From: a virus
Lineage: Duplodnaviria; Heunggongvirae; Uroviricota; Caudoviricetes
Virus record (IMG/VR): IMGVR_UViG_2537561977_000020
Direction: 5' to 3' (one strand)
DNA length: 41,610 nt
A model generated the notes under the pieces. It was not told the origin of the DNA. It worked only from the letters and a program-made list of their open reading frames with translations, and made no database searches. Position 1 is the first letter of the stretch. Each line of letters opens with the position of its first letter. Below, one piece after another: positions 4,937 through 19,445 of the stretch. Both the position numbers and the translations under genes were made by a program.

Positions 4937-5066
4937 TTTGTGTTTGTAAGTCTGAATAATATTTCTGCATTTACTGAACGCATATTTTTCTTTGCTGTTT
5001 TCTTTAACTCCTCCGCTAATGCGCGGGGGACCCGTAATTTAAACTGTAAGTGCTCATCTGATTTTT

Positions 5067-5336
5067 TCACAATATTCCCTCCAGATTTTTGCTATCCAGC
5101 ACCACTACGGTAAAGCCCAGTTTTCGCAGACGTTCATGTTCGCGCAATTGGTCAGGCCGTGGTGGCTTGCCGGGAGATTTACATTCAACGAAAACGATAC
5201 GACCACCTGGTAGCAGGACAATGCGATCCGGTACCGAGCGGTGACCGGGAGATACAAACTTAAAGGCCACTCCGCCAGCTTTTTTCACTTCAGCGACGAG
5301 GTGCTTTTCGATAAGGCTTTCACGTTCATAGGCCAT
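5067..5336 (-). CDS. VRR-NUC domain nuclease
   Basis: Motif VFVECKSPGKPPRPDQ typical of VRR-NUC; probable start MAYERE at 5336. Confidence 0.55.
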   Translation of the reverse strand: MAYERESLIEKHLVAEVKKAGGVAFKFVSPGHRSVPDRIVLLPGGRIVFVECKSPGKPPRPDQLREHERLRKLGFTVVVLDSKNLEGIL

Positions 5337-6654: not shown

Positions 6655-6941
6655 AGTTACCTCTAACGGTGAAATTCACCGCCACCACTGAGTTGCAAAT
6701 CTCATATGGGTGGCGAACTGACGAGGTTTGCAATACCGGCGTTAGAGGAAACCGGCGCGCCGAAGCGCCCCCGCCAGCCCGCCATAATGCGAACGTGGCA
6801 AAGCTTGCGACAATAAAAAAGACGCTGGCGCGTCTGGTGTCGCCCCTAACAATTCCGGGTTGCAAATCCCGATCTCCATTTGGGAGATTCGGTGAGCATA
6901 AACCGGAAGGGGGTGATGAGTCAATATCGGGGTAGCAGGGC

Positions 6942-7022
6942 GGTCGGGTACTTGAACACCGCAGCAAGTCGGCCCGTATCCTTAGCCTTTCGGCTGTTTT
7001 TCGGTATACGCGCTACCCGACC
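6942..7022 (-). promoter_or_regulatory. structured leader element (long-range stem enclosing GNRA-type hairpin)
   Basis: Inverted repeat GGTCGGGTA (6942-6950) / TACCCGACC (7014-7022) enclosing 63 nt with AGCC-GAAA-GGCU hairpin; homologous element with compensatory changes at 10938..11016. Confidence 0.45.
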
Positions 7023-10125: not shown

Positions 10126-10899
10126 TTAACGAGGTAAAGTGGGTGGAATATATCTGCCGATGCGGTCTTCTATGGTCGGCAGAGCACACATGCTGTCGCT
10201 GAAGCGATCATGCAACTGGTAAACCAGTTTCGAATCCATTTTTTCGAGGGCAGGCATTAACTGCGAGCGCCAGATTTCATTGATGCGCCGGAAGTTATGA
10301 CAGATGGCGCGGAGATTGTTGATGAACATTTCCTTCTCTGCGTCATTGATTGCTGTCTGCACTTTCTGAATACGCTTTGTGCTGCCGTTCCGGTAAAAGT
10401 CCTTCTGCGCAGCGACAGCCTCATCCACGGTTGGATAGCACCCGACGTAAACGTTCTTCTCTCCGTTCCATGCGTAGGCTCTGTACGGGTTGTATTTGCT
10501 ACTGTGGTGGTAAACCATTTTCGGCAGACACTCCCTGTGCGGCGCCAGTACCGTGGAGGACTGCGGAATAGCGGTTTCTTTCTCTATAAGATCAAGCACC
10601 CAACGGCGAAATTCTTTTGCTACTGGCGTTGTTGCGAACATCGCTACCAGGTGAGCACCGCGTAGAGAGAAAATGCGGTTATTCATTTGGACGGAGCCGG
10701 TTTTCCTAACGACCGTCAATTTGACGGTCGTTGTCATTTCAACTGAAAACTCATCCCGATTACGGTCATAAATACGAGCGACTGAGTCCGTTCGTGAGTA
10801 TTCCAGCGCGGTCGCCAGAGTGGCAGCGGTGAACCAAGATTTGCCGTTATGTTCGATCGTTTCGAGAATGTGGGATTTGAATACGAGTTGGGTACTCAT
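10126..10899 (-). CDS. Bro-N/KilA-C type antirepressor-like protein
   Basis: Probable start MSTQLVFKSH at 10899 (track ORF extends to 11064 through the leader); Bro-N-like N-domain; C-terminal domain paralogous to 5890..6654. Confidence 0.55.
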   Translation of the reverse strand: MSTQLVFKSHILETIEHNGKSWFTAATLATALEYSRTDSVARIYDRNRDEFSVEMTTTVKLTVVRKTGSVQMNNRIFSLRGAHLVAMFATTPVAKEFRRWVLDLIEKETAIPQSSTVLAPHRECLPKMVYHHSSKYNPYRAYAWNGEKNVYVGCYPTVDEAVAAQKDFYRNGSTKRIQKVQTAINDAEKEMFINNLRAICHNFRRINEIWRSQLMPALEKMDSKLVYQLHDRFSDSMCALPTIEDRIGRYIPPTLPR

Positions 10900-10937
10900 G
10901 GTTTTATGCCCTAGTAGATATTTTGAATTTACCCTTT

Positions 10938-11016
10938 TTGAGAGGGTGGTCGGGCGCTCAAAACCGCTACTAGTCGGCGGGCGTATTTCCCTTCGGAAGG
11001 GTGTTGTATTAGCCGC
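10938..11016 (-). promoter_or_regulatory. structured leader element, cassette 2
   Basis: GGTCGGGCG (10938-10946) / CGCCCGACC (11008-11016) enclosing 61 nt with CCCUUCGGAAGGG hairpin; arms covary with cassette 1. Confidence 0.45.
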
Positions 11017-11120
11017 ACGCCCGACCATTGAATTCTCAATATCATGGACATAAAAAATCCGCATGACTGACGGGCGCGGTTTCCGCTAGTAGAAAAGGTG
11101 TTTTGAGCACCATGAAGCGG

Positions 11121-11225: not shown

Positions 11226-11773
11226 TTAAATTAGTGCTTCAGCATCAGCACTTTCGCTGATATCGTCGAAATCGTCAGCGCTTGCCACTCCGCCGCCAGC
11301 GAATGCATCGCCGTCTCGCAGGAACTGGACTCCGCCGAGTGAGGCATTAATGCGTTTACCGAAATTATTGTCCTGTGCCCAGATATCGATAACGGCGTTT
11401 ACATAGCACCCTGCATAGGGACGTCCATCAGCCTGAATTAGTGGCGAACGATCGCGATCAAGAACAGCTGGGCGCGCTTTGTTAGCAGCGTTCAGGAAGA
11501 AATTGCCGGGAAAGCCTTCATACTCTGCTTTTTCATCACCATCATGCAGGCACAGATTGAGTTTTTCTCCAGCTGGTTATAAATGGACTCCAACTTCTCC
11601 CCCCATTTTTCCTTCGCTACCTGCTTCATAGCTTTACGGATTTCTTCCAGTTGTGGGTGTTTGGGAGACATTAAAAATACTGCGGAGAAACGCGGATCGC
11701 CTTCGCCGTTTACAGTTTTAGCTTCAAACAGAGCAGGAAAAGCTAATCTCACGTTATTTAATTTAATCTTCAT
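11226..11773 (-). CDS. DUF2815-type phage single-strand DNA-binding protein, frame-broken
   Basis: N-terminus MKIKLNNVRLAFPALFEAK; continues in -1 frame after T5 run 11562-11566 as LCLHDGDEKAEYEGFPGNFF...ending 11226; track shows only 11492..11773. Confidence 0.6.
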
Positions 11774-12285
11774 TTCAAAACTCCTATAAATTCTATGGAT
11801 TCTTTTTCCGCTGCTTTACGCGCAATTACAGCTTCCGCTACGGAATTAAATAGACCTAAATGTTTTTCTTTGCCGTGCAGCTTTATATAAGCTCTCCACT
11901 TATTACGGTGACGGCAAACCCCAACGGCACCGCTTTTATTATCAGAGCGTAAGGATTGGTTAATGTTATTTTCGGTAGAGGTTACAAGTCGTAGATTAGA
12001 AAGGGTGTAATTGCTCCGATTTTTGTCTATGTGATCTACCTCTAATCCCGAGGGGATACTACCGTTATGCATAACCCAGACGATGCGATGTAACAACATT
12101 TTCCGACCGTTTACACTTACGTGATAATACCCGTCCGGCCTTATATGTCCCGCTTGCTTATCTGCATATTTAGCATTCCAGGACAAATAGTCTCGCCGGG
12201 TTTTAAAATGGGTGAGCGGACGATATTTCCATATTAAAACGCCATTGTGATACCGGAAGCATTCATTTAAATATTCTTGATCCAA
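11770..12285 (-). CDS. HNH homing endonuclease (HNH + AP2-like DNA-binding domain)
   Basis: EVDHIDKNRSNYTLSNLRLVTSTEN and SGAVGVCRHRNKWRAYIKLHGKEKHLGLF. Confidence 0.65.
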   Translation of the reverse strand: MDQEYLNECFRYHNGVLIWKYRPLTHFKTRRDYLSWNAKYADKQAGHIRPDGYYHVSVNGRKMLLHRIVWVMHNGSIPSGLEVDHIDKNRSNYTLSNLRLVTSTENNINQSLRSDNKSGAVGVCRHRNKWRAYIKLHGKEKHLGLFNSVAEAVIARKAAEKESIEFIGVLK

Positions 12286-12299
12286 ATAACCTCCTTAAA

Positions 12300-13601
12300 T
12301 CAGATGAGGTCTGCGGTTAGCGTATCGTCGGATACGTCGTCGAAATCATTTACAGGGTTGATATTGAGTGCGGGGTGTGGGTCTGACTCGGGAACGACGG
12401 TGGGTTTACCATCAGCTCGTGTTATCAGTGCCTCGACTTTTGACCAACGGCGCGGACTGGCCTTTTTGATAAGTTTTTCGGCTTTTGTGGGACTAATAAG
12501 TTTAAAGTCGAATACTTCTTCAGTTTTGTACCTGAACTGGTCCTTCAGAAGTGCGCGAGCTGCCTCTTCATCACTCCAGGCCCGGTTACCTTGTTTTCCT
12601 GTTACCAGTTTAAACCCCGGTACCGGATGTCCGGCATTGAGTTCATTGTGAACCCGGTCCCGTACTGCCTTTAGCCAGGATTCAATAAAGTCGGCCTGAC
12701 TATAGATCTCCGCAAGCTGCTCAATGGTTAACAGAGGTACACGTGCGCTGGCATTGGTGATTATTTCGCTGACAGGCTTTGTCAGATCTTCAAAATCGCT
12801 GGCCGCTGTTTGTAAATGCTGCATTTTCTGGGCAGTGCAAATAGCTTTTGCTTTACAGAAGCGGCACTGTTTTTCTCCAGGTATGAAGTTTTCCAGCGGT
12901 AGTGTCTCAATGCCTTCGCATTCAGCAATATTGAGAACAAGGATCGCACTGGTTGCGGCCTCCAGCGCCCGTTCACCGAAAGACTGAAGTTCCTGTACGG
13001 TTAACGACCATTCTGAAACGTGGTTGAGCCTTGGCTGGTGAATAAATAATCTTACAGTTTCAAAGTCATACAGCATGCTGAATTGTTCAAGCGCACCCAG
13101 AGCATATAGTTGTAGTTGCTCATTTTGTTCTGCATCAATGCGGACGCCTTTGCCATATTTCAGGTCGTGGATTTGTAATTCGTTACCAGCGATGATTATG
13201 CCGTCGGCAGTTCCGAAAGATTCTTCCACCCCCGTTATATGTGAGAAATCAACACGTTGTTCAACCAATAGTTCATTATTCTGTGCAAGAGTCCAGACCG
13301 TATCAACATACCGGCCAACGGCTTCGACCATTTCATCATCCACCTGTGGGCCAGATGTATCATCAGGATTTTCGCGAAGGGGGTATGAGCCGAGAAACAT
13401 AGAAACATTGCATCCGGCGTAGTGTTCCGGGTGGCTTTGCCTGTTTCGTAGAACTTTTTCAGCAAGTGCGTGCGCTGCAGTGCCCTCGATTGCAAAAGTT
13501 GTTTCTTTATCCGGTTGTGTGGCCTCCAGCGCCAGACTACCCGCACACCTTAGCCAACGATGTGCAGATGATGGTGATAATCGTGCATGAACATCAGGCA
13601 T
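12300..13601 (-). CDS. DUF2800-type PD-(D/E)XK nuclease
   Basis: N-terminal [16 protein letters not shown] and C-terminal Cys cluster [10 protein letters not shown], recalled for DUF2800 proteins that accompany DUF2815 and PolA in phage replication modules. Confidence 0.6.
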
Positions 13602-14112
13602 TCATGACCTCCTGAATGTGTTTTCGCCGCGCAGCCGCTGCGAGTTGTTTGGTGGGGAAATGACCGAGAGATTTGAATTTGCCGTTTACTCGTCCGTAGG
13701 CCTGCCACGGTTTTTTCTTACCTTCGCTGAACCGAACGCCAACCACTCCAGATTTATTTTTTCTGGTGTGAGAGTTAGCCCTGTTTTGTGAAAGAGAGGC
13801 CCAGCGAAGATTTACCGCCCGGTTGTCATCTCGACGACCGTTAATGTGGTCAACTTCAGGGGCAGATCCGGGAATAAATGCTGCGGCAACGAGACGGTGT
13901 ATTTTGACGGTTACCTTTTTACCCGCTTTCCATAAGTCGGTGATTAGATATCCGTCTGTGTCATAGCGTGGTTTTAGTGACTTACCTTTAATGGGATAGG
14001 TGCAGCCAGAACCTTTGTTTAATACAGTTCTGTCGAGGCTTCTCAGGTTGCCAGCGTCTGAAATCTGGTAAATGCCTTCAAAGCCTGAAATATCCTTCCA
14101 GGCTTCCGGCAT
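13594..14112 (-). CDS. HNH homing endonuclease (NUMOD4 + HNH + AP2-like)
   Basis: [79 protein letters not shown]. Confidence 0.65.
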
Positions 14113-14114
14113 GA

Positions 14115-15017
14115 TTAACCCTCCAGTGCTTTTTCAGCCAGGGTGATTACTTCAGCGAGATTTTCATCCGTTACTTCACCAAGTTTCCTGGCTCCCTGTT
14201 TTTCCAGAATTGCAATAGCTTCTGCCCGGTAGCCCCCTTTTGCTAACTGGAGGATCAACCCTTCAGCTTGTTTGCGTAGTGCCGCGAAATCAATTGTATG
14301 GTCATCTTTGGCGTCATTATTCTGGCTGGAATTTGCTGCGTCTCTGCGTGCAAATTCTTCCTGCAGCTGAAGGTACTCAACACGGTTGATCTCGATATGG
14401 CCTTTTTTCAGCATCTCGTTCAACTTGCGTAAGGTGTGGAGTTCACTGGCTGCTGTGCCGGATACATTTTTGACGTAAAACGGCCCCGTGCGTTCTCCAT
14501 CTTTGTTACTGGCCTTTTTCGGTTTAACTTCATCACGCCCATCCGCAGGTGCATCAAGTAGCTGCTCGGCAAAAGCACGTCGCTCGCCGATGGTTGGCAG
14601 GTCGTCCCAGAACTTAAGGATGTTACGGGACAGGTCCAGGAGAGCAGGTTTAAGCAGCGCCCTGGCTCGTTTGACGCCCTGTAATGCGCTGTCGAGAGCA
14701 TCAATCTGAACTACTCGTTTATCGCCTTCAGCATCACGGTAGGCAACAGCACGTTGCAGCATGTCTTCTGTGATAGGGGTGGCTACCGGGTAGAAACCAG
14801 CCAGTGCGATAACGTCGCTGAACTCCAGATCATCCAGTGTCATTGCCGCTGACATGTTTTCAGCTTCAGTTGCTGTATCCCGACATTCCTGCACTCGTGA
14901 AATCGTGTCAGGATGCATAACAATACCTGATGCCATTGTGCGGATAAGACGTTCAAGCAGCGCATTATGTTGTGCCAGAAGTTGATTATTAAGTTCTAGA
15001 CTGGTTTCTAAACTCAT
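14115..15017 (-). CDS. hypothetical protein (300 aa)
   Basis: Long ORF tightly packed in operon; no family recognised. Confidence 0.4.
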   Translation of the reverse strand: MSLETSLELNNQLLAQHNALLERLIRTMASGIVMHPDTISRVQECRDTATEAENMSAAMTLDDLEFSDVIALAGFYPVATPITEDMLQRAVAYRDAEGDKRVVQIDALDSALQGVKRARALLKPALLDLSRNILKFWDDLPTIGERRAFAEQLLDAPADGRDEVKPKKASNKDGERTGPFYVKNVSGTAASELHTLRKLNEMLKKGHIEINRVEYLQLQEEFARRDAANSSQNNDAKDDHTIDFAALRKQAEGLILQLAKGGYRAEAIAILEKQGARKLGEVTDENLAEVITLAEKALEG

Positions 15018-15196
15018 ACTGTGGTCCTCGCTACAAGGAGAATGAAAGTGATGATCAGACCGAGCGCAGTGGCAACGGCCAGACCGGTCATCAAATCGAA
15101 GTTTTTACGGCGATAACGGAGAACATCGCGCCCCGTCAGTCGATGGAGGTATTCAGGTTTCATCGGTTGTATTCCTTTTTTCATATCGGGGAGCAC
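15014..15196 (-). CDS. small hypothetical membrane protein
   Basis: 60-aa ORF with hydrophobic C-terminal segment LAVATALGLIITFILLV; first ORF after PL-side terminator. Confidence 0.3.
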   Translation of the reverse strand: MLPDMKKGIQPMKPEYLHRLTGRDVLRYRRKNFDLMTGLAVATALGLIITFILLVARTTV

Positions 15197-15222
15197 GCTG
15201 TTGCGAGTGCGCTTTCAGACAT

Positions 15223-15248
15223 AAAAAAGCCCGTCACTTGCGGCGGGC
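15223..15248 (-). terminator. intrinsic terminator (tL-like) upstream of early-left genes
   Basis: Minus-strand hairpin GCCCG-CCGCAAGUGA-CGGGC then U6. Confidence 0.5.
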
Positions 15249-15322
15249 AAAGACTACACACAGCAATTACATGGATATCATCGAGTGCCTGCTTTTAACC
15301 ACATCAGGCGAGGTGGTTCTCC

Positions 15323-15370
15323 TTGTACCCCTACAGTGAGAAATCGTCTAATATCTCTTCACCCCTACAG
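15323..15370 (+). promoter_or_regulatory. putative promoter with direct-repeat sites upstream of ORF 15388
   Basis: TTGTAC (15323-28), 18 bp, TCTAAT (15347-52); exact 10-mer ACCCCTACAG at 15327-15336 and 15361-15370; inverted repeat around RBS. Confidence 0.35.
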
Positions 15371-15387
15371 TTTGAGAGAGATTAGAT

Positions 15388-15957
15388 ATGTCTGAAGAAA
15401 AAGGAATTCTTTCCCGGATAACTGAATCGTTATCCGGCGTGGGAGGAGCAATTAAAGGCGCGGTTGGAGCAGCAAGAGAGATTCAGAATCTGACTGTCGA
15501 CTATGCAGTTAAAGAGAAGACGCACACCTTACTCGATAAGTTAATGGATGTTCAGATGCAGCAAATGTCGCTTCAGGAGCTGCTGATTGCGGCTAAGGAG
15601 AAAATTGTTGAACTGGAAAATGAGAAAGTAAAGCAAGAGAACTGGGCCGCTGAAGCGGCGAGCTATGAACTTTACCAGCCTATGCGGGGTACTCTGGTCT
15701 ATCGCAGCAAGCTTTCTGCAGATGCTGACCAATCTCCGGTTTATATTTGTCCCAATTGCTACGAGCAAAAGAGAAAATCTATATTGCAAGCGGAAGGTCT
15801 GGTTACTAAGCCAGGCCTTGAGCGAGCCGTTAATATGGTTTGTTCGCACTGTAGGGCTTCCTATCTGTTCAACCGAAATGCTTTAGAGGCCCGACTGCCT
15901 TCTGAAGATGAAAATCCGGGGAAGGCAATCACGGATTACGATCCTTACAACCAGTAA
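15388..15957 (+). CDS. hypothetical protein with Gly-rich N-terminus, coiled coil and C-terminal zinc ribbon
   Basis: 189 aa; CPNC...CSHC Cys pairs; ATG 15388 with GAGAGAG upstream; convergent with PL transcription. Confidence 0.5.
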   Translation: MSEEKGILSRITESLSGVGGAIKGAVGAAREIQNLTVDYAVKEKTHTLLDKLMDVQMQQMSLQELLIAAKEKIVELENEKVKQENWAAEAASYELYQPMRGTLVYRSKLSADADQSPVYICPNCYEQKRKSILQAEGLVTKPGLERAVNMVCSHCRASYLFNRNALEARLPSEDENPGKAITDYDPYNQ

Positions 15958-16171
15958 TTTCTTTAAGCATGGGTACCCTTCCGGCCACCCAGAGTTAAAG
16001 GAACTAAGCGCCCCATCGTCGGGGCGTTTCAACTTGCGTGACTTATCAGTTCGTCGCGGTGTTGTCCTCTACGCTTACCGTACGCATACGGACTCGGCGC
16101 TTACCTCGATCCCATCGGGTGCCATTTCATTTTGCCAGGAGTACTGCGGCTTACCTGTCACGCGGTTCAGT

Positions 16172-16184
16172 TTGTTAAAGAGCG
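16172..16184 (-). promoter_or_regulatory. boxA-like antitermination element downstream of PL-like promoter
   Basis: Minus strand CGCUCUUUAACAA, matching rrn/lambdoid boxA consensus GCTCTTTAACAA. Confidence 0.5.
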
Positions 16185-16201
16185 ATTACTTATTGCGATT
16201 A

Positions 16202-16236
16202 AAAATACAAGCAAACCTGTGAATGCGTCAACAGGT
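16202..16236 (-). promoter_or_regulatory. PL-like early-left promoter with operator-like sites
   Basis: Minus strand TTGACG (16231-16226), 18 bp, TATTTT (16207-16202); operator-like TACAAGCAAACCTGTG (16206-16221) and ACCTGT/ACAGGT inverted repeat flanking -35. Confidence 0.45.
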
Positions 16237-16292
16237 ATTTTGGTAATAAAATGCATTATTAACCTAATTACTTGTTTTTACGGGTAATAAAA

Positions 16293-16312
16293 AAGAGGGC
16301 CTAAGCCCTCTT
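16293..16312. terminator. bidirectional intrinsic terminator downstream of cI
   Basis: AAGAGGGC-CTAA-GCCCTCTT hairpin flanked by A6 on one side and TTTGTTT on the other. Confidence 0.6.
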
Positions 16313-16333
16313 TGTTTAGTAGTCAGGATGCGA

Positions 16334-16963
16334 TTATCTTTTTCTGCGGAATATGCGATGTTCTACCATTGTCCCTATGATCTTAATTGGTTTTTCCCAG
16401 GAGCGACAAATAGGGTAATCACTATTCAATGGAACAAGTTCAAAGTCTTCCTCACCTTTAGCGCCAATCCCTACCGGGCGGTATTTTTTGAACGTTGCTT
16501 CGTGGCTACCGTTACATGCCGCAACGAATTCACCAGGAGTAGGGTATACGTCAGTGTCAATTATAACGATGTCCCCCTCTTTAAATTCAGGTTCCATTGA
16601 ATCCCCACGTATACGTAGCGCAAATGAACTTTCTGATAGCTCAGCCGTGGTGAGAATGTATTCGAAATCACCTTCTTCACGAAGTAGCTCAGCGCTTGTG
16701 AAAGCCCCGGCTTGTACGTAGCTTAGAACAGGCACCCTTCGAGCTCCGTAGTTGAAATCTGTAACAACATCGCCCCCAAGAAGTAGCCATTTAGGATCGC
16801 ATTCAAGAGCTGACGCTAAAGCAAGAAGATTGCGTGGTTTAAGTGTTTTCCCATTCTCTATAGCTTCAATCGACTGCTGGCTAATGCCCGCTCGTTTCGC
16901 AACTTCGACCTGAGTTAAGTTTAGTTCTGTTCTGCGTTTTTTAGCTCGGTTGGCAAGATTCAT
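16334..16963 (-). CDS. cI: CI-type repressor (HTH + S24 LexA-like peptidase domain)
   Basis: HTH LNLTQVEVAKRAGISQQSIEAIENG; S24 motif RIRGDSMEP; start MNLANRAKK at 16963 with AAGGAG RBS. Confidence 0.8.
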   Translation of the reverse strand: MNLANRAKKRRTELNLTQVEVAKRAGISQQSIEAIENGKTLKPRNLLALASALECDPKWLLLGGDVVTDFNYGARRVPVLSYVQAGAFTSAELLREEGDFEYILTTAELSESSFALRIRGDSMEPEFKEGDIVIIDTDVYPTPGEFVAACNGSHEATFKKYRPVGIGAKGEEDFELVPLNSDYPICRSWEKPIKIIGTMVEHRIFRRKR

Positions 16964-16990
16964 GTTGACTCCTTTTCTGTCATTGATGAT

Positions 16991-17051
16991 TACAGATACT
17001 TCTGTATTTGACAAACAAGGTTGCCTGTGAGGTAATTACAAGTAAACCTGT
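16991..17051. promoter_or_regulatory. OR-like operator/promoter region between cI and cro
   Basis: Palindrome TACAGAtactTCTGTA (16991-17006), TACAAGTAAACCTGTA (17036-17051), TTGACA (17008-17013) with 17-bp spacer to GGTAAT. Confidence 0.5.
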
Positions 17052-17298: not shown

Positions 17299-19445
17299 AT
17301 GTCTGATAACAAACCATGGGGAGCTACGCCCGATGAGTGGTTCCACTTCGATCTGGTGTTGGGGATGACAGACAGGCTTTTACCTGTGGTGTCCAATCCC
17401 TGTGCAGAACTGTCGCCTAATAGCAAGCTTTCTCATAATTTTGGCAAAACTCCCTGTCGCTACAATGGCCAACGTAAGGTTGTTGGTATCCCCGACTGGG
17501 CTAACTATGTTGTTACGGAAAACGATTTTGCCCGGTGGTCGAACGAACCCGATTACGGTATTTGCGTTCGTACTGGCGACGGGGTGGTGGCTCTGGACTG
17601 CGATATCAATGACGCCGGGATGCAGGAGATCGTACGCAATATTATCCTGTCATGCCTGGGGGAACTTCCGCCACGTCGCTGGCGGGCTGACAGTCATAAA
17701 TGCCTGTACCTGATTGCTGTTGATGGCGACTACCGTAAACGTGGTCACCGCCTGGAAGGCGAAAATAAACAAATAGAGCTGCTCGCTAAGGGCCAGCAGT
17801 TTGTGGCTTGTGGTACCCATCCGGCAGGCGAACGTATTCAGTGGGACTGCGGTTTGCCCGGCGAACCTCTGAAAATTACATCTGAACAGCTCGAAAGCCT
17901 GTGGCAGCGCCTGGCGGATAACTTACCCGTGAAAGACAGCTATACCGCAGGTGCGGGACGTCAGCGTGACCTTTCCTGTGTCGATCCTTCCGCGACAGAT
18001 GATGTCGCCGACTGGCTTGACGCGAACGGGTGGACTCTGTCGGTCAGCTCTGATGGTTCCCGCAATCTGAAACCGTTTCGGGATGAGTCAGAATACAGCA
18101 ACGGTTGCAGCGAAACATCCATTAAGTATTTCCCAAAAGGGACGGGGGGATTTGAACAGGGACATTTTAAAAGCATGCACAACACCGATGCGGGGCTTAC
18201 TGATGCCGACTGGCTGGAAGGCTACGGCTATACGCAATCTCTGTTCGAAGATCTCACGGTGGCTGAAGATGGCGATAAGCCTGAATTTACCGATATTAAT
18301 ACAGATATGACAGCCCATTTTCTGGAACGCTTTATCTACGTCATCGAGGGTGACCAGGTATGTGATCTTAGCCGACCGCCATATCAGTGCATGATGGATA
18401 TGAAGTCGTTCAAAAACCTGATGGCGCCTTACCAGTTCCCGCCAGAAGGGAAAGGGCAACCAGTCCCCGCAACCAAACGGTGGATAGAGCACCGGCATAA
18501 GAAGATTGCTGAGACGACAGGCTATAAGCCCGGTGCGGGACGTATTATCGAGCGTTTCGACGGGCGGTTTGAAATAAACGAATTTTATATGCCTGAGCAT
18601 CCACGTACAGCGGATACAAGTAAGGTGTCCACGTTCCTTAATCATATGGCGTATCTGGTACCTGATGCCTGGCAGCGCGAGTTTTTCATCGCCCGTCTGG
18701 GATGGATGGTTCAGCGTCCGGAGCGTCGATGCCCGATTTCTATTCTGCATGTGGCTACCGCACATGGTACGGGCAGAGGATGGGTCAGCCAGTTAATGGA
18801 GCGCGTGCTCGGCCCGTGGAACTGTGCTCGTACTCGCATGAAGATCCTGTGCGATAACCAGTTCCATGACTATCTGTACAATACGCTTCTATGCACCATT
18901 GACGAGGTGCGCGAAAACGATAAGCGGTATGAGGTGAACGATAAGATCCGTGACGTGCTGACAGAACCACGGTTTGAAGTGAACCGCAAATATGGCAGCA
19001 AAAAACGATGGATATATACACCGGCTTTCTGTTCTACACCAACCACTTTGATGCGCTGGCGCTGCCAGAGGAAGACCGACGTATAGCTGTGCTGGGGGGC
19101 CCTGACTTCGCCGCAACTGAAGAGCATTACGCCAGCCTGTACGGTGCGCTAAGCGACAGCGACTTTATCGCCCAGGTGTACTGGTATCTGATGGGCGTTG
19201 ACCTGTCTCGCTTTAACTGGCAGCGCGCCCCCGAGACGAAAGAACGCCTTCTGATGATTGAAAGCAATAAGAGCGATGTGGAGGCTGCTCTTACTGAAAT
19301 CCTGGATAATCCGCCTGTACCAGCAATGACTTATCAACAAATTGTTAACGCAATACTGGCAGAAGCAGGAATGGATGTAGAAATTAACCAGAAGCACATA
19401 ACAAAGCTATTGCGAGAAAAACAAAAAGGCAGCCAACAGATTTAG
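17299..19445 (+). CDS. prim-pol type DNA primase with D5-like C-terminal region, frame-broken
   Basis: Prim-pol motifs VVALDCDIND and ELLAKGQQFVACGTHP; track ORFs 17299..19086 and 19008..19445 joined by -1 shift at A6 run 19000-19005. Confidence 0.55.

Follow-up and report, generated by a model that had tools for sequence, protein, structure and literature searches.

The left early region of the prophage

In the window, by which we mean the whole stretch of 41,610 nucleotides of Caudoviricetes DNA analysed here (IMG/VR record IMGVR_UViG_2537561977_000020), a repressor gene is transcribed on the minus strand towards a PL-like promoter (Table 1). The counterpart of this repressor in an essentially identical prophage (CREC-544) is annotated as a "LexA family protein". 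Two operator-like sequences overlap the promoter. One of them is the 15-mer ACAGGTTTnCTTGTA, whose only other copy in the window (17037-17051) lies between the repressor and the cro-like genes, i.e., in the cI/cro divergent region; the other is the palindrome ACCTGT-N10-ACAGGT at 16215-16236. Overall, promoter, operators and repressor have the layout of a repressor-controlled PL, and the promoter proposed in the preliminary description of this DNA was confirmed at its place on the minus strand.

Table 1. Position and strand of features in the left early region of the window
Feature	Position	Strand	Remarks
cI-like repressor gene	16334..17014	-	HTH_3 + Peptidase_S24; transcribed towards PL
Intrinsic terminator, timm-like	16292..16313	-	end of repressor transcript; 9-bp stem AAAGAGGGC/GCCCTCTTT, then T run
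PL promoter with overlapping operator-like sequences	16202..16236	-	operator-like sequences at 16206-16220 and 16215-16236
PL-like promoter	16231..16202	-	TTGACG-18-TATTTT; sigma-70-type
boxA, CGCTCTTTAACAA / CGCUCUUUAACAA	16184..16172	-	exact; 5' edge of the module
Folded core, P1-P5	16036..16163	-	subtypes A, B and C, folded independently, give one architecture
P1a, closing helix	16163-16157 with 16042-16036	-	part of the long closing helix P1
P1b-d		-	irregular extension of P1a; window copy has mismatches relative to the family consensus
P2	16140-16137 with 16068-16065	-	UCCU with AGGA; invariant
Single-stranded junction GGCAAAAUGAAAUGGC / GGCAAAnnGAAAUnGC	16136-16121	-	invariant
P4 hairpin	16120-16103	-	5 of 7 pairs changed on both sides
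P5 hairpin	16100-16071	-	variable; contains CCGUA-UGCG-UACGG
P6 hairpin	16009..16026	-	CGCCCC-GACGAU-GGGGCG; 3' edge of the module; no U tract after it
Convergent 189-aa ORF	15388..15957	+	phrog_1244, function unknown; cargo cassette, crossed antisense by the PL transcript
RprA-like sRNA module	15219..15332	-	RF00034, 47.5 bits, E 1.5e-4 (gathering score of 70 not reached)
Strong intrinsic terminator of the RprA-like module	15248..15223	-	separates PL from the early-left operon
First early-left genes (49/60-aa and 300-aa ORFs)	14115..15196	-	

Over more than 900 nt, the PL transcript is not translated, and part of this stretch is antisense. The 189-aa ORF cassette that it crosses is missing from the prophage of E. 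coli STEC435 and from many other loci bearing the RNA module described below. Further downstream, the preliminary description had placed a tL-like terminator. A terminator is indeed present there, but it belongs to the RprA-like sRNA module, the 3' half of which (AAUUGCUGUGUGUAGUCUUUGCCCG plus the terminator) hardly differs from the part of RprA that is conserved. The direct repeat ACTGTAGGGGT is found near this module at 15361-15371 and 15327-15337. Such a module could represent a prophage-borne mimic or decoy of RprA. Beyond it lies the early-left operon, which in the PGAP annotation of the essentially identical prophage encodes DUF2800, DUF2815, Nmad5, a family-A DNA polymerase, VRR-NUC, a DEAD-box helicase and an integrase.

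No N-like gene accompanies this arrangement. The ORFs around PL, when scanned against Pfam and PHROGs, gave no match to an N family, and the PGAP annotation of the essentially identical prophage contains no N, its only antiterminator being a Q-family one on the right arm; the earlier remark that PL is not followed by an N-like ORF was thus borne out. As for an N encoded elsewhere, which had been left open as a possibility, a scan of the whole window for small Arg-rich ORFs revealed nothing credible, only short out-of-frame ORFs inside genes, with the limit that N proteins are diverse and their absence from ORF scans is not a proof.

A folded RNA module behind PL

The 5' leader of the PL transcript is formed by an element of 178 nt (16186..16009, minus strand). 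In BLAST comparisons with phages and prophages that have a different repressor, the similarity sets in at boxA (within a base of 16183); where the downstream genes differ, it breaks off near 16009. The stretch after boxA is a discrete mobile RNA module, and its borders are mosaic joints. It recurs behind many different repressors in prophages of Enterobacteriaceae. When viral contigs were scanned for a pattern taken from the 32 nt of the module that are best conserved, at least 120 loci (116 distinct copies) came up, and in a scan of one genome per species true copies were found only in Enterobacteriaceae, namely in Trabulsiella, Citrobacter, Pluralibacter, Pseudocitrobacter and Enterobacter. 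Four sequence subtypes were distinguished: A, which includes the window copy, B, C and D (loci L187 and L192). Among 5426 complete E. coli genomes, 107 (about 2%) contain a copy of subtype A or B, and subtype C was found in three complete E. coli genomes and also in Enterobacter phages. The prophage of E. coli STEC435 (L006) has the element at 5001-5192 and carries Q and stxA2b on its right arm. Rfam 15 gave no match inside 16009-16186, either at gathering thresholds or at E<=10, and a full-text literature search brought up no description of such an element, an earlier mention in older literature being possible.

The boxA at the 5' edge of the module had already been described as a perfect match, and so it is: the 12-mer GCTCTTTAACAA is exact at 16172-16183, it occurs once in the window, on the minus strand, and shuffled sequences contained on average 0.20 matches (100 shuffles, scored at one mismatch or fewer). 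Counted from the -10 hexamer, it begins about 10-13 nt into the predicted transcript. The consensus boxA GCUCUUUAACAA present in the element is identical to the rrn consensus, and a boxA of the kind expected for nut sites (CGCUCUU(U)A) is located near the 5' end of an early transcript. A boxA-like sequence is kept in all four subtypes, 7-8 nt before P1, and none was found in the upstream sequence of those siblings of the window's family that carry put (see below). BoxA is part of the module and moves together with it rather than with put. Upstream of boxA, subtypes B and C have the hairpin GGCGGACAGCAAGUCGCC immediately before it, and in subtype A, the window included, only about 12 nt of transcript precede it. 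Downstream, no small conserved boxB-like hairpin follows boxA in any subtype; 7-8 nt past boxA lies the 5' strand of P1a, which pairs about 115 nt downstream and covaries with its partner. A GU-rich boxC was not seen on reading the element by eye, and a search of the PR side for a second boxA found none at two mismatches or fewer.

The fold of the module consists of a long closing helix, the helices and junctions enclosed by it and a terminal hairpin, P6 (Table 1). The invariant sequence GnAGAGGA follows P5, and about 9 nt separate the 3' end of P1 from P6. A covariance model (R1) was built from 21 gap-free sequences of subtypes A and B with the proposed structure; the remaining subtypes were aligned by this model, and statistics were taken on 31 distinct sequences. 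In this set, which is drawn from about four to five independent lineages in an alignment fitted to the structure of the model, 94.7% of the pair cells are standard pairs and 21 of the 43 pairs are changed on both sides. When the 3' partners were shifted by one to three columns as a slide control, only 27-43% remained paired. All seven pairs of P1a show changes on both sides, with variants such as GCGUGAC/GUCACGC, GAGUGAC/GUCACUC and AGCAGCAA/UUGCUGCU, and in L185 the second pair alone is changed, to U-A. P4 is 100% paired, with zero unpaired cells, and three of the six pairs of P6 are changed on both sides. An all-against-all column scan, run for further covarying columns or pseudoknots, was uninformative: it produced many spurious "covarying" column pairs and was swamped by lineage effects. 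Given these spurious pairs, the small number of lineages and an alignment that leans on the model, we base the argument on helices as contiguous units and on the slide control rather than on any individual pair. With this in mind, the element is a structured RNA, one fold being kept across its four subtypes.

Folding energy contributes nothing here. By minimum free energy, the window copy does not surpass shuffled sequences (z = +0.78), so that energy is uninformative and the evidence for structure is covariation. The hairpin CCGTA-TGCG-TACGG pointed out in the preliminary description does exist, at 16091-16078, but the stability of the stretch as a whole does not exceed chance. Plain MAFFT with RNAalifold across the subtypes misaligned the 3' strand of P1, and the model-based alignment was used instead. 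Hammerhead-like words in subtype A (CUGAUAA and GAAA) were also considered and dropped, being absent from subtype C and without a match in Rfam.

Two further features of this stretch deserve comment. The three GGTAAGC copies counted earlier are present (16149-16155, 16099-16105 and 16073-16079, out of eight in 41.6 kb), and in the fold they fall on the junction of P1a with P1b and on the 3' strands of P4 and P5; since they are missing from subtypes C and D, we rejected them as the functional feature. The statement that the stretch holds no ORF above 16 codons was slightly off, because a GTG ORF of 28 codons lies at 16161-16075. This ORF is not conserved in relatives and is absent from subtype C, hence a coding role was rejected as well. 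The copy in L097 (6473-6624) lacks the whole of P5 through a natural 26-nt deletion that lies between two GGTAAGC direct repeats and is mediated by them, and this copy still scores 176 bits by the covariance model; another short match, of 152 nt and 140 bits, was found in L183 (2461-2612). P5 may be dispensable.

The PL-leader slot in related phages and the possible role of the module

We compared the position behind PL across 54 loci of the window's own family, anchored on the 300-aa early gene. The covariance model matches 27 of these 54 loci, and L155, which was left out of that search, carries the module too, bringing the module-bearing loci with intact upstream sequence to 28. A clear putL homologue is present in another 22, of which 21 fit the strict put pattern and one (L184) has a variant of it. 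No locus carries both, and no intact locus carries neither; the remaining ones are truncated, disrupted by IS elements or rearranged. The put sequences of the siblings are clear homologues of HK022 and HK639 putL and align well with each other; in L143, for example, the homologue is found at 2889-2960, directly behind a PL-like promoter. The 3' flank AGTTCCCTTTGGGGTG is common to put-bearing and element-bearing loci of the family, and both have the same small early genes.

A second, lambdoid backbone presents a similar picture. With the gene that follows the slot as anchor, 71 of its loci were compared; 26 have put and 25 the element, and in about 20 there is something else or too little sequence. 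The slot of L250 is occupied by a P22-like N ORF with an Arg-rich motif. In HK639, a "putL-like antiterminator RNA" is annotated behind a putative pL, and the PL leaders of HK639/phi80-like phages share both 5' and 3' flanks with subtypes B and C. The phi80 leader is common with these subtypes through the hairpin and boxA, and in phi80 the identical boxA is annotated as the boxA of nutL, followed by boxB and gene N. Altogether, the slot is a recombination hot spot for known and putative antitermination devices, three of which alternate at one position, namely N with nutL, putL and the boxA-RNA. It is also important to mention ABWA45, where a phi80-N-like ORF is located about 860 nt downstream of a subtype B element; the element is thus not strictly exclusive of N-type genes. 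Additional cassettes were seen in this slot. In L215 and L217, where the leader precedes a MADKK gene, it holds a further cassette beginning with AAGTGGAGTTAGAGGACCGC, and L238 (1700-2480) combines a phi80-type nutL, an ORF that by eye resembles an HNH endonuclease and a 3' remnant of a subtype C element.

Homology of the element to HK022 or HK639 put and to phi80 nutL was ruled out by reading, BLAST and the covariance model. The put regular expression found no match in element-bearing loci, R1 found none to HK022 put or HK639 put at E<=1, the covariance model of the module did not match phi80 nutL, and BLAST of the element retrieved no put phage. The mEpimmI "Nus-dependent non-lambdoid" phages proved to be unrelated and use an N-like Gp17.

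To our knowledge, bacterial RNA polymerase can be made to run through terminators over long distances in only a few ways, and those relying on RNA only are very rare, comprising put of HK022 and EAR of Bacillus. The put consensus reads GAACGGCnCG...CCAUGCGUCGG...CGGCAAU and spans about 70 nt with two stem-loops; read-through by put requires neither phage proteins nor Nus factors and is blocked by rpoC mutations in the beta' zinc-binding domain. The host allele rpoC-Y75N blocks put, and a roadblocked complex of put has been studied by cryo-EM. EAR is a structured cis RNA of Bacillus eps operons, for which processive antitermination without a dedicated protein has been proposed.

We infer the putative function of the element by comparative genomics, from its position and its interchangeability. 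Like put, it always lies directly behind PL, with terminators downstream that would have to be passed, in a phage without N; a strong intrinsic terminator occurs no more than 900 nt downstream in at least 69 of 118 distinct contexts, and in several of them one comes about 20 nt after P6. Since sister phages have either a putL homologue or an N gene in this slot, N-independent antitermination by RNA, already suggested in the preliminary description, is the best reading; the element is, however, no homologue of put and differs from a plain rrn leader. In our opinion, the element is probably a new cis-acting and N-independent processive antitermination RNA, composed of boxA and a folded domain. 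More tentatively, at somewhat short of even chances, it might represent a third independent class of RNA-only processive antiterminators after put and EAR, one in which boxA is joined to an RNA domain that replaces N (an "RNA N"), resists both Rho and intrinsic terminators and can be exchanged with putL and N/nutL.

A possible course of events would be the following. Once the repressor is lifted, RNA polymerase would start at PL and transcribe boxA first, which would recruit the host NusB-NusE(S10). The P1-P5 domain, with its invariant junctions GGCAAAnnGAAAUnGC and GnAGAGGA, would fold co-transcriptionally and stay on the elongation complex, either directly on RNA polymerase, as put RNA does, or via NusA/NusG. 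The polymerase modified in this way would resist Rho across the long untranslated stretch antisense to the 189-aa gene and pass the terminator of the RprA-like module, reaching the replication and recombination genes of the left operon. The loading of NusB-NusE by boxA, the persistent binding of the domain and the resistance to Rho and terminators are steps that we infer from sequence. Nus complexes on boxA alone counter Rho rather than intrinsic terminators, and we hypothesise that the folded domain has an activity beyond that of boxA. In HK022 put, nucleotides C59-A64 (CGGCAA) are central to the contact between the RNA and the beta' zinc-binding domain, A64 being critical (PMC9378689). It is tempting to speculate about the resemblance between this segment and the invariant single-stranded UGGCAAA of the element.

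Among known systems, HK022 and HK639 put (putL, putR) resemble the element in setting: both are RNAs encoded in cis behind PL in enterobacterial temperate phages without N, and they share the slot and its flanks in two backbones, upstream of terminators, being mutually exclusive there. Unlike put, the element is about 175 nt long and combines a long closing helix with a multi-helix junction and a hairpin at its 3' end; it shows no detectable homology to put and always begins with boxA, whereas put has no boxA and needs no Nus factors. With nutL and N of lambda, P22 and phi80, it shares the slot and a boxA near the start of the PL transcript, but no boxB follows, the window has no N gene, and a folded domain of 150 nt stands where boxB and the N leader would be. 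The rrn leader (boxB-boxA-boxC; rrnTAC with NusA/B/E/G, SuhB and S4) likewise has a consensus boxA and a long untranslated transcript, and the hairpin directly before boxA in subtypes B and C may be a further point in common; in contrast to the rrn leader, the element is driven by a phage early promoter, has a conserved multi-helix domain after boxA and is followed by intrinsic terminators. EAR is comparable as a structured cis-acting RNA proposed for protein-free processive antitermination, yet it comes from another phylum, is operon-internal and lacks boxA, and no Rfam family matches the element at E<=10.

Other interpretations of the same data have to be weighed. Boxes of the boxA type are the hallmark of nut sites, and the identical leader with boxA serves phi80 N, so that boxA and fold together might be an elaborate nut-type site recognised by a protein acting in trans, be it a phage analogue of N or a host factor; polymerase would then owe its resistance to termination to that protein instead of the RNA. 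The invariant single-stranded junctions could bind such a protein, and the phi80-N-like ORF of ABWA45 agrees with this as well. We nevertheless regard it as unlikely: a boxB-like small hairpin does not follow boxA, neither the window nor the PGAP-annotated version of this prophage yielded an Arg-rich N-like ORF, and the element occurs in unrelated backbones without a common candidate gene. Moreover, other members of one and the same family have put in its place, which works without any phage protein, and the siblings with put have the same small early genes as those with the element. The precedent reportedly provided by boxA-only antitermination in rrn operons and CRISPR arrays, the perfect match to the rrn consensus and a PL transcript that remains untranslated for so long and runs antisense to a gene would fit still another view, in which boxA alone gives rrn-like, Nus/SuhB-dependent protection from Rho and the fold is a passenger (a 5' stabiliser, a spacer or a relic). 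Compensatory changes preserve the fold in all four subtypes, and its junctions do not vary, which argues for selection on the fold itself; in addition, the downstream intrinsic terminators are poorly handled by boxA complexes alone, and put, the counterpart in the same slot, suppresses such terminators. That boxA works on its own is, in our judgement, quite improbable.

The spacing of terminators speaks for a leader or small RNA with another job, such as a trans-acting sRNA made by early termination, an element of stability or processing, or an attenuator that senses a ligand or signal and gates the PL operon. In many subtype A loci a terminator follows within about 20-70 nt; this would fit a discrete small RNA too and counts against antitermination. 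In many relatives no more than about 70 nt separate the element from the RprA-like module, and a terminator or an RprA-like seed-plus-terminator that follows the element within 20-70 nt would yield an RNA of about 200-300 nt in many loci. Small RNAs are known to arise from early termination of phage transcripts, StxS reportedly being an example, and a multi-helix junction with invariant unpaired nucleotides has an aptamer-like appearance. On the other hand, the downstream terminator is outside the module, the window and other contexts do not have it near P6, and no conserved alternative pairing of P6 or P1 with the terminator was found. A job of this kind also leaves boxA without a role and hardly explains the strict alternation with putL and N in one slot, and we regard it as unlikely. 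Overall, the strict alternation with put, the conserved fold or the downstream intrinsic terminators speak against each of these alternatives.

If the "RNA N" reading is true, the element would be the first union of a Nus-factor loading site (boxA) with an RNA domain doing the job of N. A second RNA of E. coli phages in the put slot, unrelated to put and beginning with boxA, would offer a natural comparison of N with nut, put and the boxA-RNA on one polymerase, with which one could examine whether RNA can replace N within the Nus complex, and synthetic biology would gain a compact, protein-free part for read-through. Located at PL, the element would govern early expression in a widespread prophage family, which includes at least one Shiga-toxin-converting (Stx2b) prophage, since that of STEC435 carries both the element at PL and stxA2b.

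Further observations in the window

The gene following the cro-like gene is split in the window into two overlapping ORFs on the plus strand (17299-19086 and 19008-19445), and CREC-544 has a single DUF5906 gene of 2265 nt at this place. The split is a frameshift, reflecting either a pseudogene or a sequencing error. On the minus strand, the early-left operon has two extra endonuclease-like ORFs compared with CREC-544, at 13594-14112 and at 11770-12285 (171 aa). The former resembles a NUMOD4-domain gene found at that position in STEC435, and the HNH/NUMOD4 reading of both was made by eye. A 93-aa ORF at 11492-11773 looks truncated, relatives having a DUF2815 gene of 549 nt there.

Finally, several RNA families scored above the Rfam gathering score on the minus strand: C4 antisense RNA at 6706-6789, isrK at 6815-6888 and sRNA-Xcc1 at 6934-7022 and 10940-11026. 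As a mere guess, this set may belong to an antirepressor-control RNA system of the P1/P7 type. With its 5' end, the longest frame of a 312-aa ORF (10126..11064, minus strand) overlaps the sRNA-Xcc1 copy at 10940-11026.
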